Assembly (NCBI GenBank): GCA_026989495.1
Contig: JALSJE010000048.1
Location: forward strand, 1,198-65,197
From: Gammaproteobacteria bacterium
GTDB taxonomy: Bacteria; Pseudomonadota; Gammaproteobacteria; S144-34
Direction of reading: 5' to 3'
DNA: 64,000 nt
Shown: positions 31,870-37,456 of the stretch, piece by piece
Layout: every line of letters starts with the position of its first letter
Numbering within the stretch: position 1 is the stretch's first letter
The notes under the pieces: model-generated
Told to the model about the DNA's origin: nothing
The model's database searches: none
Seen by the model: only the letters and a program-made list of their open reading frames with translations
Made by a program: the position numbers and the translations under genes

Positions 31870-33081
<1,212 letters not shown>

Positions 33082-33169
33082 GCCCGCTCCTCCCGGCCGC
33101 GCGCGGCGCGTCCGGGGCCTCCCATGGGCATGCCGCGACGCTGAGCGCCGCGGGATGGCCGGGCCGTCC

Positions 33170-33631
33170 TCAGCGCGCCCACAGGCGCGAGACGAGATGG
33201 TCCAGGCTCGCGCGGCCCGCGCCCTGGAACAGGAGGGGCAGCAGCATCACGAGGTAGATGAGCGGCAGCTTCCAGCCGTTGCTGCACACGTTGTAGCCGT
33301 TGTCCGCGTGCACGCTCGTCCACGCCACCACGTCCAGCACGATCAGGGCGAGCGCCCAGAAGCGCGTGCCGAGCCCGAGCACGAGCCCCACCGCGCCGAG
33401 CAGCTCGGTCCACAGGGCGAGCTGCCAGCTCAGCTCCACCGGGACCAGGTTGAAGGGGAAGGGGAAGCTCGCGCGGATCTCCCCGAACCAGTTCTGGCCG
33501 TAGAACTTCTCGACGCCCGACTCCCAGAACTCGTAGGCGAGCAGGAGCCGCAGCCCGAGCTGGGGCAGGAAGGTGCCGATGCGGTCGAGCCAGCCGACCA
33601 CGGTGCAGCCCAGTGAGACGATTCCGCTCAT
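33170..33631 (-). CDS. DoxX family membrane protein (BufD/HvfD-like)
   Basis: 153 aa, 4 TM. DoxX-type LRLLLAYEFWESGVEKF. Start overlaps the DUF2063 stop (ATGA). Confidence 0.8.
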   Translation of the reverse strand: MSGIVSLGCTVVGWLDRIGTFLPQLGLRLLLAYEFWESGVEKFYGQNWFGEIRASFPFPFNLVPVELSWQLALWTELLGAVGLVLGLGTRFWALALIVLDVVAWTSVHADNGYNVCSNGWKLPLIYLVMLLPLLFQGAGRASLDHLVSRLWAR

Positions 33632-34428
33632 CGGTCCTCATCCTCCCGCGACCTCGCCGGTCCTGTGCCGTTCGCGGCGGTGCCGAGCAGCACCTCGGCG
33701 CGGCGCAGCGCCGCCAGCGTGGCGGCCCCTGCCGCCACCGCCCCTTCCGGGTCGGGCAGCCCGAGCGCCTCGGCGGCGCGCCACAGGGCCTCGGCCCCGG
33801 TCAGCCCGGGCTCCGCCTCCAGCAGGGCCAGCAGGCGCTCGGCGGCGGGCGCGGCCTCCATGAAGCGTACCGCCTCCGCGCTGTCGCGCCACACGAGCAG
33901 GTGCACGGGCTGTGGCGCCGGTGCCTCCGGCACCACGTCCGGCCCGATGCGGTGCACGGGCCAGCGGTAGCGCAGGCGCCGCAGCAGCGGGTTGGGCACG
34001 GGGTGGCCGGCGAGCAGGTCGCCCGTCGGATCGAGCCCAGCCGCCGGGAGCTCGCGGGGGTCGTAGGCGACCTCGAGCTCGACCCATTCATAGTGCAGGA
34101 GCTCGCCGAGCCACGGCGGCACCGGCGCGCCGCCTGCGCCCGCGGCCACGAAGCCCACCAGCTCGCGCGGCAGCTTCGGGAAGAGGGGGGTGCGGGCGCG
34201 GTGGCGGGCGAGGAAGGCGCGCACGAGGGCATGCCAGGCCGCATCCCCCAGCGTGGCGCGCGCCACGGGGAAGGCGCCCGCGAGCTGGTCCTCGACGTTG
34301 TTGTAGACCAGCTCGCGGTAGACGGCGATGCGGTCGGCCGGCACTTCCGCGGGCGGGGGGACCCGCTCCGGGTCGCGCAGATGCGCGGCGAAGCGCCGCT
34401 GCAGCTCGGCCAGCCGCCTTTCAGCCAT
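33628..34428 (-). CDS. DUF2063 domain protein (putative DNA-binding-domain fold; MNIO partner BufC/HvfC/TglI-like)
   Basis: N-terminal RRLAELQRRFAAHLRDP...VYRELVYNN is typical of DUF2063. GGGAGG RBS. Starts 2 nt after the DUF692 stop. Confidence 0.8.
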   Translation of the reverse strand: MAERRLAELQRRFAAHLRDPERVPPPAEVPADRIAVYRELVYNNVEDQLAGAFPVARATLGDAAWHALVRAFLARHRARTPLFPKLPRELVGFVAAGAGGAPVPPWLGELLHYEWVELEVAYDPRELPAAGLDPTGDLLAGHPVPNPLLRRLRYRWPVHRIGPDVVPEAPAPQPVHLLVWRDSAEAVRFMEAAPAAERLLALLEAEPGLTGAEALWRAAEALGLPDPEGAVAAGAATLAALRRAEVLLGTAANGTGPARSREDEDR

Positions 34429-35305
34429 GGACGGCCTCCCGGGCGCGGCCACGCTGGCAGGCGCGCACGCGGGCGAGCTCCGCGAGCAGCGTCTCCAGGG
34501 GCGGAATGTCGAAGTCGCGCTCGAGCAGGGTCGGCATCGGGCCGAGGCGCCGGTAGGCGTGCTCGAGCAGGCGCCAGACCGGATCGGGCACCGCCGTGCC
34601 GTGGGTGTCGATGAGGAGATCCGGGCGTTCCACGTAATGGCCGGCCACGTGCAGGTAGGCCACGCGCGCCGGCGGGATGCGGTCGATGTAGGCGTAGGGG
34701 TCGAAGCCGAAGTTGACGCTGTTGACGTGGACGTTGTTCACGTCCAGCAGCAGGTCGCAGTCCGCCTCTTCGAGCACCGCGCAGACGAAATCGACCTCGT
34801 CCATCTCCTGCGCCGGCACGGCGTAGCAGGAGACGTTCTCCACCGCGATGCGCCGGTCCAGGAGGTCCTGCACCCGGCGGATGCGCGCAGCCACGTGATG
34901 CACGGCCTCAGCGGTCCAGGGCAGCGGCAGGAGGTCGTAGAGCTGGCCGCCGTCGGCGCACCAGGCGAGGTGCTCGCTGTAGATCAGGGCCCCGTGGGTG
35001 TCCATGAAGCGGCCCACGGCGCGCACGAAATCCTCCTCCAGCGGGGCGGTGCCCCCCAGGTTGAGGGAGAGCCCATGACAGACGAGGGGCAGGCGCTCGG
35101 TCAGGCTGCGCAGCAGGCGTCCCTGCCTGCCGCCCACGCCGATCCAGTTGTCGGGCGCGAGCTCGAGGAAGTCCGCCTCCAGCCCCGGCCCACGTGCGCG
35201 TTCAGCCGCCTCCTCCAGGAAGGCGCGGCGCAGGCCGAGCCCCGCCCCGCGCAGCCCGGGCGGGACGGCGCTCACATCCCGCCGCCGCACTTGCCTTCGC
35301 CGCAT
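34421..35305 (-). CDS. DUF692 / MNIO family (multinuclear non-heme iron oxidative enzyme; MbnB/TglH/BufB-like), TIM-barrel
   Basis: GLGLRRAFLEE...LELAPDNWIG...VCHGLSLNLGG...IYSEHLAWC...IAVENVSCY...AYLHVAGHY are the conserved DUF692 blocks. Start is either ATG 35305 (AGGAAGG RBS, 33-nt overlap with precursor) or GTG in an ATGTGA overlap with the precursor stop. Confidence 0.85.
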   Translation of the reverse strand: MRRRQVRRRDVSAVPPGLRGAGLGLRRAFLEEAAERARGPGLEADFLELAPDNWIGVGGRQGRLLRSLTERLPLVCHGLSLNLGGTAPLEEDFVRAVGRFMDTHGALIYSEHLAWCADGGQLYDLLPLPWTAEAVHHVAARIRRVQDLLDRRIAVENVSCYAVPAQEMDEVDFVCAVLEEADCDLLLDVNNVHVNSVNFGFDPYAYIDRIPPARVAYLHVAGHYVERPDLLIDTHGTAVPDPVWRLLEHAYRRLGPMPTLLERDFDIPPLETLLAELARVRACQRGRAREAVHG

Positions 35306-35640
35306 CGGCCTTCCTTCTTGGCCTTCTGCGGCGCGGCGCCGCCCTTCATGCCGGCGCAGGTGCCTTCCTTGCCGCCCTTGGACGTGCCGTCATTGCCCTT
35401 CATGCCGGCGCAGGTGCCTTCCTTGCCGCCCTTGGCCGAGTCGTCCTTGCTCTTCATGCCGGCGCACTGCCCCTCCTTGGCGCCCTTCCGCATGCCGGCG
35501 CAGCTACCTTCGGATCCCTTGCCGGCCACCATGTAGCCGCCTGGCAGCTCCTGGACCGCGAAGGGGTTGCCGGCCGCCTGGGCCCCGGTGCCCGCCGCCA
35601 GCGCCGCGCCCACGGCTGCCGCCAGCGCCCCCCGGCGCAT
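35272..35640 (-). CDS. secreted Cys-repeat RiPP precursor peptide (EGxCAGMK x4 + EGRCGEGKCGGGM); bufferin/HvfA-like
   Basis: 122 aa. Sec signal MRRGALAAAVGAALAAGTGAQAAG. Core has four EG(S/Q/T)CAGM(K/R) repeats and a terminal EGRCGEGKCG (6 Cys). 54-nt DNA tandem repeats. GGAGG RBS 6 nt before ATG. Sits directly upstream of MNIO/DUF2063/DoxX. Confidence 0.75.
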   Translation of the reverse strand: MRRGALAAAVGAALAAGTGAQAAGNPFAVQELPGGYMVAGKGSEGSCAGMRKGAKEGQCAGMKSKDDSAKGGKEGTCAGMKGNDGTSKGGKEGTCAGMKGGAAPQKAKKEGRCGEGKCGGGM

Positions 35641-35780
35641 CGTCGCCTCCACCCGGCCGTTCCTGCTCGTGTGGGTCTTCTCTCTGGCCATGCGTGCCAC
35701 TCCTTCTTTGCCTCGCCGCCTTGTCTTCGTTTGCGCAGGGCCGGAAGGGACGGCGGCTTCAGCCCCGCTCCGGCTCTTGC

Positions 35781-36251
35781 TCAGACATCGCTCGCCCGGG
35801 ATGGTTCGTCCGCCGCCCGTCCGCGCGCGAGCGCCTGCACGCAGCGCAGGTAGGCGGTCTCGTCGGGCGCGCGTCCCGCGCGCTGGGCGCGCCACAGGGC
35901 CTCGACCAGGCAGTCCATGATGCGGTGCTCGGCCTCGTGCGCGCTGCCGGCCCGCCGCACCAGGGCGGCGTAGGCGGCACGGAAGCCCCCCGGGCGGTCG
36001 GTTGCGGCCTGCTCGCGAATGGCGAGGTGCAGGCCCATGTGCAGGAAGGGGTTGGTCTCGCCGAGCTCCGGGAGGTACTCGCGCCCGAGGGCCGCCTCCT
36101 CCTGCTCGAGCAGGGCGTGGTACTCCGGATGCTCGGCGATCACGGCCGCCACCTCGCGCGCCAGGGGCTCGAGCGGCTCGCCCGCGCGGTGGCGGCGCCA
36201 GGCCTCGCAGTAGTAGCGTCGCAGGGCGTCGCGGTCCCGGGTGAAGAGCAT
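35781..36251 (-). CDS. DUF1841 family protein
   Basis: MLFTRDRDALRRYYCEAWRRHRAGEPLEPLE... matches the DUF1841 N-terminus. Internal Met start chosen. Confidence 0.6.
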   Translation of the reverse strand: MLFTRDRDALRRYYCEAWRRHRAGEPLEPLAREVAAVIAEHPEYHALLEQEEAALGREYLPELGETNPFLHMGLHLAIREQAATDRPGGFRAAYAALVRRAGSAHEAEHRIMDCLVEALWRAQRAGRAPDETAYLRCVQALARGRAADEPSRASDV

Positions 36252-36326
36252 GGGCGACCCTCGACCTTGCGCCGTGCCCAGTGTAGCGTGGCCGGGCGCC
36301 GGATGGACCCCCTTCACCCTGCGGGT

Positions 36327-37022
36327 TCAGCCCCCGGCGGCCCGGCGCCGGGCCGTAGGCTTGCCGGCCTGCGCGCCTTCCTTGCCTTCCCACTCGCACA
36401 GCTCCCGGATCACGCAGGCCTGGCAGCGGGGCTTGCGTGCCGTGCACACGTAGCGCCCGTGCAGGATGAGCCAGTGATGGGCGTTGCGGCGGAAGGCCTC
36501 GGGCACGATGCGCTCGAGGCCCTTCTCGACCTCCAGCGGCGTGCGCCCGGGTGCGAGCCCGGTGCGGTTGGCGACGCGGAAGATGTGGGTGTCCACGGCG
36601 ATGGTGGGCTCGCCGAAGGCGGTGTTGAGGACCACGTTGGCGGTCTTGCGGCCCACGCCCGGCAGGGCCTCGAGGGCGGCGCGGTCGCGCGGGACGCGCC
36701 CGCCGTGGCGCTCGACCAGGATGCGTGAGGCCGCGACGATGTTGCGCGCCTTGGTGTTGTAGAGGCCGATCGAGCGGATGTGGCGCCTTAGCCCCGCCTC
36801 GCCCAGGCGCAGCATGTCCTGCGGTTTGCGCACCTTGCGGAACAGGGCGCGGGTAGCCTCGTTCACGGCCCGGTCGGTGGACTGGGCCGAGAGGATCACG
36901 GCCACCAGGAGCTGGTAGGCGTTGCCGTAGCTGAGCTCCGTGCGCGGCTCCGGATTGGCCGCGCGCAGCCGCTCGAAGATGCGCCGCGCCTTCCTGCGGT
37001 CCACCGGCGCGGCCCGCCTCAC
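36327..37022 (-). CDS. nth: endonuclease III (DNA glycosylase/AP lyase)
   Basis: HhH-GPD (LPGVGRKTANVVL), catalytic K/D, [4Fe-4S] C-x6-C-x2-C-x5-C (CTARKPRCQACVIRELC). GTG start in a GTGA overlap with the upstream ORF stop. Downstream of the rnf operon as in E. coli. Confidence 0.9.
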   Translation of the reverse strand: MRRAAPVDRRKARRIFERLRAANPEPRTELSYGNAYQLLVAVILSAQSTDRAVNEATRALFRKVRKPQDMLRLGEAGLRRHIRSIGLYNTKARNIVAASRILVERHGGRVPRDRAALEALPGVGRKTANVVLNTAFGEPTIAVDTHIFRVANRTGLAPGRTPLEVEKGLERIVPEAFRRNAHHWLILHGRYVCTARKPRCQACVIRELCEWEGKEGAQAGKPTARRRAAGG

Positions 37023-37456
37023 ATGTGGCGGAAGCGACCCACCTCCGGCGCCGGCGGGGGAGGGTTCGACCGCGCCTCCTCGTCGAGCTCGCGCACCAGC
37101 CGCTCGTGCGCCTCCTCCAGGGCCTTGCGCTGTGCCTCGTCGAGCCTGGGCAGGATGAGGTCGCGGATGAGGTCGCCGAGGTCGGCCATGGCCTCGGCCC
37201 AGTGCTTGCCCTGCAGGTGGAAGCTGTGGCGGGCATGCTGGCCGTAGGGATAGGACGCGAAATCGACGCCCTTGGCCGCACGCAGGTCGGGATCTTCCAT
37301 GACCCGCTCCTTTGCCCAGTCGTACCACCACCGGTAGTAGCGCTCCTGGAGCGCCTCGCTCCAGCGGTGGCGCTCGAAGAAGGCGCCGATGGTCATGCGC
37401 GGCGCGAGACCGTAGCGCACGCCGCGCCGGGCCACGAAGGGTAGGTGTCCAGCCAT
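37019..37456 (-). CDS. hypothetical protein
   Basis: 145-aa ORF with strong GGAGGA RBS. Stop overlaps the nth start. No family recognised. Confidence 0.45.
   Translation of the reverse strand: MAGHLPFVARRGVRYGLAPRMTIGAFFERHRWSEALQERYYRWWYDWAKERVMEDPDLRAAKGVDFASYPYGQHARHSFHLQGKHWAEAMADLGDLIRDLILPRLDEAQRKALEEAHERLVRELDEEARSNPPPPAPEVGRFRHM

Follow-up and report, generated by a model that had tools for sequence, protein, structure and literature searches.

The stretch of DNA analysed here (the window; 64,000 nucleotides of contig JALSJE010000048.1, assembly GCA_026989495.1, Gammaproteobacteria bacterium) carries on its minus strand a short, Cys-rich open reading frame (ORF) at positions 35272-35640. 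In all likelihood, this ORF is the precursor gene of an operon for a ribosomally synthesized peptide with post-translational modifications (RiPP) of the captophorin/oxazolin type in an uncultured gammaproteobacterium of 74% GC, and by analogy with characterized systems its product is predicted to bind copper. By its gene content the locus is a captophorin/oxazolin-type (Buf_EGKCG) RiPP cluster: it comprises an oxidative enzyme dependent on multinuclear non-heme iron (MNIO), an adjacent PME1 partner and, immediately upstream, a Cys-rich precursor (6 Cys in 139 residues), i.e. the set that characterizes captophorin (MNIO-PME1) clusters. An earlier note on this DNA had proposed an HvfA/BufA-type precursor of the adjacent MNIO. 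This is borne out by HvfB and HvfC proteins scoring above their equivalog cut-offs and by an adjoining DoxX gene. That reading was largely right, although its novelty was overstated: the captophorin/oxazolin class has been described between 2024 and 2026 and is widespread, and its repeat architecture has been published, as has the variation in unit number (PMC12452194, PMC12538549, PMC13097082).

The assignment of the enzymes relies on the curated NCBIfam equivalog cut-offs (360 bits for HvfB, 142 for HvfC, 310 for BufB and 95 for HvfA; 19.5 bits for the NF050137 domain). The MNIO reaches 393.5 bits with the HvfB model NF003818 and 337.3 bits with PF05114 (MbnB_TglH_ChrH), and 270.6 bits, below the cut-off, with the BufB model. 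It aligns over its full length to PDB 3BWW (E = 1.9e-69) and keeps the Arg-Arg (GLGLRRAF) and Asp-Phe (LLERDFD) determinants. GLGLRR and ERDF are the counterparts of Arg15/Arg16 and Asp249/Phe250 of FonB, described as catalytic base and specificity determinants (PMC13097082). The HvfC protein scores 259.5 bits with NF050145 and matches PF09836 (DUF2063) and PF22106 (NGO1945_C). The precursor gene comes first and is followed by hvfB, hvfC and doxX, and every junction overlaps: GTGA between precursor and hvfB, ATGGCTGA for the 8-nt overlap between the hvfC start (ATG) and the hvfB stop, and ATGA where doxX overlaps the hvfC stop. The GTGA overlap is kept in L002, L008, L009, L010 and L089, while the last sense codon before it varies (ATG, AAG, AGG or CAG); L001 is identical to the window here. 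Translational coupling of precursor and hvfB, earlier suggested from the ATGTGA sequence, can reasonably be inferred from the conservation of this overlap in all six orthologues of other lineages. The HvfB profile match begins at residue 10 counted from the junction GTG. A second in-frame GTG, 15 nt (5 codons) upstream and inside the conserved K-C-G codons, is also conserved, so that the hvfB start is not uniquely fixed. A 294-residue HvfB starting from ATG 35305 is unlikely, as this ATG is absent in other lineages.

Translation of the ORF gives exactly the 122 residues with 6 Cys described earlier (MRRGALAAAVGAALAAGTGAQAAG NPFAVQELPGGYMVAGKGS EGSCAGMRKGAK EGQCAGMKSKDDSAKGGK EGTCAGMKGNDGTSKGGK EGTCAGMKGGAAPQKAKK EGRCGEGKCGGGM*). 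The GC content at third codon positions (GC3) is 0.91 in this frame, the same as in the adjoining genes, for a window and genome GC content of 73.6%. The precursor consists of a signal peptide, the segment NPFAVQELPGGYMVA, four EGxCAGM units and a terminal EGRCGEGKCG, and the KEGRCGEGKCG end is kept throughout its clade. Loss or frameshift of the ORF in relatives had been named as evidence that would speak against a gene; all relatives fetched have an intact ORF, with orthologues in L001, L002, L008, L009, L010 and L089. A protein search among 5.8 billion sequences returned only 18 matches at E <= 1e-3, and a profile search of 1.84 billion representatives recovered 535 family members, with only two clusters at E <= 1e-30. 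The architecture of signal peptide, NPF..GYM, Cys units and terminal EGKCGEGKCG is common to the 535 profile matches. All 17 homologues compared share residues P43, F44, G52, Y53 and M54, and 160 of 164 family members have the [NS]PF motif. Codons 20-58 differ by 53 synonymous versus 13 nonsynonymous changes, which indicates purifying selection, including on the NPF...GYM segment, whose amino acids are identical between lineages despite many synonymous changes. This segment is the most evident candidate for the docking region of the HvfC recognition domain. AlphaFold2, run on the precursor with a 17-sequence alignment, gave a pLDDT (predicted local distance difference test) of 43.8 and no secondary structure. 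Such predicted disorder fits the 'stochastic' Cu-binding network that has been proposed for EGKCG peptides.

The way in which this locus would function can be proposed by analogy with HvfBC, FonBC, NgoBC and MmrBC. The four genes would be carried on one mRNA with overlapping stop and start signals; the overlaps are observed and their coupling is presumed. In the cytoplasm, HvfC would dock on the NPF...GYM segment and the HvfBC heterodimer would modify the peptide, the iron-dependent HvfB converting the Cys of E-G-x-C-(A/G) by four-electron oxidation into a 5-thiooxazole, with a change of -4 Da for each. 5-Thiooxazole chemistry and Cu binding have been assigned for HvfA, FonA, NgoA and MmrA, and the chemical assignment for oxazolin has now been revised by both groups (bioRxiv 10.64898/2026.06.05.730506). 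The signal peptide would then export the product, most likely through the general secretory (Sec) pathway, with cleavage at AQA|AG. The resulting disordered, Gly/Lys-rich product of about 100 residues may bind periplasmic Cu(I) via thiooxazole N/S donors, and the thioethers of the Met residues at position +3 after each Cys may serve as auxiliary Cu(I) ligands. The core is a tandem array, probably subject to unit gain and loss and to intragenic homogenisation, and hence the number of metal-binding sites would differ even between near-identical genomes. The copper-binding peptide family is now thought to be present in about half of the Pseudomonadota reference genomes, and the locus extends it.

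Several points weigh against this assignment. The precursor scores only 8.0 bits (E = 4.4) with the HvfA equivalog NF050188, its C-terminal 29 residues reach 14.5 bits with NF050137 (KCGExKCG_twice), and no Pfam family matches it even at E <= 10. No copper-regulatory or copper-efflux gene adjoins the operon, its neighbours being DUF1841, endonuclease III, Rnf and ArgG, and a sigma-70 promoter scan of 32800-36400 found none. The difference in unit number described below rests on two assemblies, either of which may have mis-resolved the repeat. Finally, the four internal units each contain a single Cys and lack a Lys at position -1. A FonA fragment carrying just one EGKCG repeat stayed unmodified in vitro (PMC13097082), which leaves the modification of the internal Cys uncertain. 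Regarding the domain score, the NF050137 model consists of two KCGExKCG double motifs, and the precursor has one RCGEGKCG. In the Pfam and NCBIfam scans the precursor returned nothing at default thresholds and only sub-threshold HvfA matches at E <= 10. The precursor is therefore missed by the current curated HvfA models; its host belongs to an uncultured gammaproteobacterial lineage of very high GC content. It would function like an HvfA and is best filed as a divergent member of the Lys-Cys/EGKCG group of captophorins and not as a new kind.

To judge how unusual the EGxCAGM unit is, 905 Cys contexts from 164 family members were counted, a sample that is biased to the profile of the CAGM clade. 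In 88% of the contexts Cys is followed by Gly and in 8% by Ala; it is preceded by Lys in 72% and by another residue in 28%. Met is found at +3 in 11% of the contexts; CxGM is present in 37 of the 164 proteins (23%) and CAGM in 9. Some units in the clade have Thr or Asn in place of the +3 Met, and none of the internal units departs from E-G-x-C-A, which would be expected of positions that the enzyme reads. The earlier note had called CAGM unusual, with a Met immediately after the Cys. The Met in fact sits at +3 (C-A-G-M); it is common in the family and unconserved in the clade. What stands from this claim is that Ala at +1 and non-Lys at -1 are minority choices. The genuinely rare trait is thus the use of a single-Cys EG(S/T/Q/R/N)C-A unit as the main building block, and not the Met. 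The strings CAGM, EGTCA and GTCAG are absent from the supplementary file of PMC13097082 and from the text of PMC12452194. CAG contexts were also seen for Methylococcus (EGKCAGMKK) and Methyloglobulus (EGACAG), beside HvfB homologues. The relatives richest in CAGM are P0005 and P0006, from Chromatiales metagenome-assembled genomes (MAGs) of hydrothermal-vent metagenomes, which have three EGTCAGMKK units followed by EGKCGEGKCG. Their genes (L003/L004 6001-6315; L006 4938-5234) are orphans, with no MNIO or HvfC within 6 kb, and the gene next to them matches PF04463 (2-thiouracil desulfurase-like). Their maturase must be encoded elsewhere, or else these peptides are unmodified.

These features raise the question of whether all six Cys are modified. 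Only the C-terminal EGRCGEGKCG pair could be converted to thiooxazole, the four CAGM Cys staying free thiols that form Cu(I) sites with the +3 Met, or disulfides. It is the C-terminal pair alone that resembles the HvfA domain model, and this view is in keeping with the unprocessed single-repeat FonA fragment and with internal units deprived of the -1 Lys typical of the family. Nevertheless, every internal unit across the clade has E-G at -3/-2 and Ala at +1 while the spacers drift, which fits recognition by an enzyme better than simple thiol ligands. Moreover, FonBC tolerates in vitro a motif with Thr, Ala or Arg in third and Ala in fifth position (PMC13097082), and the orphans P0005 and P0006 are mostly composed of EGTCAGMKK units. 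We consider such partial modification unlikely, and by analogy with FonBC the internal Cys are likely modified by HvfBC. The internal units would offer a natural test of the tolerance of HvfB-type enzymes, for a non-Lys residue at -1, for Ala at +1 and for isolated versus paired motifs.

The 54-bp direct repeats mentioned earlier were recovered by two methods. Tandem Repeats Finder (TRF) reports a 54-nt period at 35308-35499 (3.6 copies, 78% match) and, on the coding sequence alone, 2.7 copies with 89% match and a score of 222; a repeat search found five in-register copies at 35281-35511, with spacings of 54, 54, 54 and 36 nt. Units 3 and 4 have an exact repeat of about 41 nt in common. The successive Cys are separated by 12, 18, 18, 18 and 5 residues; the first unit thus lies 12 residues from the second, and the uniform spacing of 18 residues claimed for the four EGxCAGM Cys applies to the rest. 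The best match of the precursor, P0001, lacks exactly one unit, GNDGTSKGGKEGTCAGMK, and otherwise equals the window protein. It is carried by the 69-kb contig L001 (ENA ERZ27262642), which is syntenic with the window (Rnf, endonuclease III, DUF1841, precursor, MNIO, HvfC, DoxX). A global alignment of both sequences over 13.8 kb shows 4 SNPs (single-nucleotide polymorphisms) and a clean in-frame deletion of one 54-nt unit. The 9 mismatches and 2 gaps placed by BLAST downstream of the repeat result from mis-registration in the repeat. Variation of the core length by repeat slippage, as put forward in the earlier note, is thus supported by a one-unit difference between two assemblies. It would indicate, at the level of strains, that metal-binding sites change in number more rapidly than the sequence around them. 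The current picture of the family is altered neither by this difference nor by the tolerance test. Variation in unit number has already been reported for the family (PMC12452194), and Microbulbifer MmrA has 5-8 Cys across strains of one genus (PMC12538549).

The difference could also be an assembly artefact, the tandem repeat having been collapsed or expanded in one of the two assemblies. The L001 contig comes from a k141 (MEGAHIT-style) metagenome assembly, the exact repeat of about 41 nt between units is ambiguous at small k, and an exact-anchor scan of JGI metagenomes turned up no third copy of the same-species gene. A degenerate scan of these metagenomes gave one further clade member, L089, from another species. 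However, with 41 nt of exact identity and 95 nt to be bridged, the repeat fits within the final k of 141 and within a typical read, and the indel amounts to exactly one in-frame unit. Unit number also varies within a genus in this family, and tandem periods differ from lineage to lineage (54, 48, 45, 30 or 24 nt). For these reasons an artefact seems to us a rather poor explanation, and a true polymorphism is preferred. In the six other clade members the four EGxCAG units and the terminal pair are kept and the spacers differ (e.g. 16/16/19/18 residues). The -1 residues of units 3 and 4 (35314-35421 in the window, and the orthologous units of L002, L009, L010 and L089) form the pairs T/T, S/S, S/S, N/N and N/N. 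Being alike within lineages and unlike between them, they point to intragenic homogenisation, and suggest concerted evolution of units 3 and 4 via gene conversion or unequal exchange inside the precursor gene.

Translation probably starts at the upstream ATG 35691 rather than at ATG 35640, which had been chosen before. The gene most likely spans 35272-35691, because the GGAG-TG[GT]CACGC-ATG context is common to all six orthologues of other lineages (L002, L008, L009, L010, L089 and P0003). Nothing else in the intergenic region upstream is conserved across the clade. The upstream start adds 17 residues (MAREKTHTSRNGRVEAT), to give 139 residues. In the four orthologues of the L002 group, this extension shows 8 synonymous versus 39 nonsynonymous codon differences, i.e. 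free drift at the protein level, and keeps a coding-type periodicity (GC content of 0.32-0.53 at second codon positions, GC3 of 0.74-0.95). The codon aligned with ATG 35640 is TTG in L002, L009 and L089 and CTG in L010. Since TTG is otherwise unused (none of 150 Leu codons in neighbouring genes), its presence at this position in relatives makes an internal alternative start conceivable. A second start at 35638-35640 (TTG or ATG) may yield a short classical signal peptide beside the long form.

Read by hand, the precursor N-terminus has n-, h- and c-regions and an AQA cleavage motif in line with homologues, and a twin Arg. Applying the -3/-1 rule and comparison with homologues, cleavage at AQA|AG is more likely than cleavage after AAG, which had been proposed first. 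The maximum 12-residue Kyte-Doolittle mean of the h-region is 2.15, close to that of homologues. The signal peptides of the clade combine a polar n-region of 17-21 residues, RRGAL or RRGAV, and an Ala/Gly-rich h-region, traits that are Tat-like (twin-arginine translocation) in a family described as Sec-dependent. The clade precursor could have gained a twin-arginine signal, the modified and possibly metal-loaded peptide crossing the membrane via TatABC. Indeed, the signal counted from the upstream start has 39 residues with RR followed by x-A-L/V. It matches the simple pattern RR.[FGAVML][LITMVF] of the TatP method in the window, L002, L010, L089 and L008, and more distant homologues have short Lys-type n-regions. 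Yet the precursor matched no Tat-signal family at E <= 10 in NCBIfam or Pfam, libraries that presumably include TIGR01409 and PF10518; there is only the simple RR-x-A-L pattern. RR is preceded by Met or Leu and not by Ser/Thr, the c-region has no basic residue, the hydrophobicity of the h-region is that of Sec-type homologues, and Arg generically replaces Lys in a genome of 74% GC. If the internal ATG/TTG is the true start, the signal is of the classical 22-residue Sec type. Tat export appears improbable, and Sec is regarded as the likelier route. It is also improbable, in our opinion, that all these peculiarities combine into a distinct captophorin subclass. In such a subclass EG(S/T/Q)C-A-G-M would give isolated Cys thiooxazoles with a 2-substituent from Ser, Thr or Gln and a mixed N/S/S(Met) Cu(I) site with the +3 Met. 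The number of sites would be tuned in populations by gain and loss of 54-nt units, perhaps with Tat export.

Table 1. Coordinates of the features of the predicted captophorin locus in the window.
Feature	Positions	Strand	Basis or remark
Shine-Dalgarno sequence AAGGAG	35700..35705	-	8 nt 5' of ATG 35691
Putative precursor gene (hvfA-like, captophorin precursor)	35272..35691	-	139 aa from the probable upstream ATG; translation, GC3, intact orthologues, Shine-Dalgarno-ATG context
Internal ATG, possible alternative start (start chosen in the earlier note)	35638..35640	-	GGAGG 6 nt upstream
Predicted signal peptide, residues 1-39	35575..35691	-	polar n-region MAREKTHTSRNGRVEAT, twin Arg, Ala/Gly-rich h-region, AQA|AG; hand assessment
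Conserved post-signal segment NPFAVQELPGGYMVA	35524..35568	-	invariant residues, synonymous-only drift between lineages
Four EGxCAGM units	35314..35511	-	TRF, repeat search, unit coordinates; E-G-x-C-A invariant in clade
EGxCAGM unit 1 EGSCAGMRKGAK	35476-35511	-	
EGxCAGM unit 2 (EGQCAGMK...)	35422-35475	-	
EGxCAGM unit 3 EGTCAGMKGNDGTSKGGK	35368-35421	-	
EGxCAGM unit 4 EGTCAGMKGGAAPQKAKK	35314-35367	-	
54-nt unit missing from L001	35382..35435	-	alignments, overlap of BLAST pieces; placement ambiguous by <=41 nt (flanking exact repeat)
C-terminal canonical double motif EGRCGEGKCGGGM	35275..35313	-	translation; sub-threshold NF050137 match
GTGA junction, hvfB GTG start over precursor TGA stop	35272..35275	-	sequence GGG-ATG-TGA; GTG 35275-35273 in MNIO frame
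hvfB, MNIO maturase	34421..35275	-	284 aa from junction GTG; NF003818, PF05114, PDB 3BWW alignment
hvfC, partner protein (DUF2063 N-domain and RiPP recognition element-type C-domain)	33628..34428	-	NF050145, PF09836, PF22106; same gene call in L001
doxX (hvfX-like membrane protein)	33170..33631	-	PF07681 67.9 bits, above Pfam cut-off; same gene in L001

One of the nearest described counterparts is the hvfABC-hvfX locus of nontypeable Haemophilus influenzae, which produces HvfA/oxazolin (PMC11252979). Both loci have an HvfB-equivalog MNIO, HvfC and DoxX, but in H. influenzae the DoxX gene (NTHI1440) precedes that of the precursor in numbering, and in the window doxX comes last. The terminal E-G-(K/R)-C-G-E-G-K-C-G of the window precursor is HvfA-like. 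HvfA has three AEGKCGEGKCG double motifs and an N-terminal disulfide pair, whereas the window precursor has one double motif and four EG(S/Q/T)CAGM, with no extra Cys pair. The 'Lys-Cys' captophorins FonA (fontiphorin) and NgoA (gonophorin) (PMC13097082) are like the window in their MNIO-PME1 cluster, in the Arg-Arg/Asp-Phe enzyme determinants and in a repeated Cys 5-mer. Their product is a 5-thiooxazole Cu-binding peptide, and the same product is predicted here by analogy. Compared to them, the window has Ser/Gln/Thr and not Lys at -1, and Ala and not Gly at +1, both substitutions being tolerated by FonBC in vitro. Its units are 12-18 residues apart, whereas those of FonA and NgoA are contiguous. 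Buf_EGKCG/oxazolin type 1 (PMC12452194) is alike in its variable number of tandem units, gene set and Pseudomonadota hosts, and its Sec-type signal is the likelier type in the window too. Its 17-residue double-motif repeat is not matched in the window, where the units span 12 or 18 residues with one Cys (EGxCAG) each and are predicted to be disordered. MmrA (bulbicupramide) of Microbulbifer (PMC12538549) similarly has a conserved leader and a variable core, but its cassettes are canonical EGKCG with two Cys each, and its host is of a different lineage. The bufferins BufA1 (DUF2282) and BufA2 (PMC11626156), which have a role in copper stress, share the enzyme superfamily, the partner and the signal-peptide logic. 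The window precursor, unlike BufA1, has no DUF2282 match, and its maturase is below the BufB cut-off (270.6 versus 310) and above that of HvfB.

Outside the operon, DUF1841 (35781-36317 (-) in the window) lies directly upstream of the precursor gene, at about 90 nt, in the window, L001, L002 and L008. It is preceded by endonuclease III in the window, L001 and L002, and before that by the Rnf operon in L001. A convergent argininosuccinate synthase (ArgG) gene closes the operon. A terminator scan of 32800-36400 found a single plus-strand terminator-like hairpin, at chance level, and no other precursor-like ORF was seen in the window. Long ORFs of 212-669 residues over the operon (33003-33641 (-), 34328-35536 (+), 35148-36728 (+) and 35272-37281 (-)) are artefacts of the 74% GC content, in the wrong frame or on the wrong strand. 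The last of these is the precursor frame prolonged to a GTG at 37281. The 212-residue ORF at 33003-33641 (-) is out of frame, Arg-rich and without family match, the true gene there being doxX. The closest relatives of the host are MAGs, seemingly from hydrothermal-vent metagenomes according to their contig names.

Other precursor types were seen beside HvfB homologues. In L022, L031, L036, L037 and L079 the adjoining precursor has an NPF..G[YF]M leader followed by KCGNICGG/KCGSTCGE (CxxxC-like) motifs. L022 has EGKCG-type and CxxxC-type precursors in tandem upstream of one hvfB; the two ORFs stop 674 and 74 nt short of the hvfB match. Relatives of the precursor fused to calcium-binding EF-hand domains were also found (P0015, P0016, L024, L028, L032, L034 and L045), including beside the HvfB genes of Lysobacter and Thiothrix, in agreement with the published Buf_EGKCG|EF-hand chimaeras.

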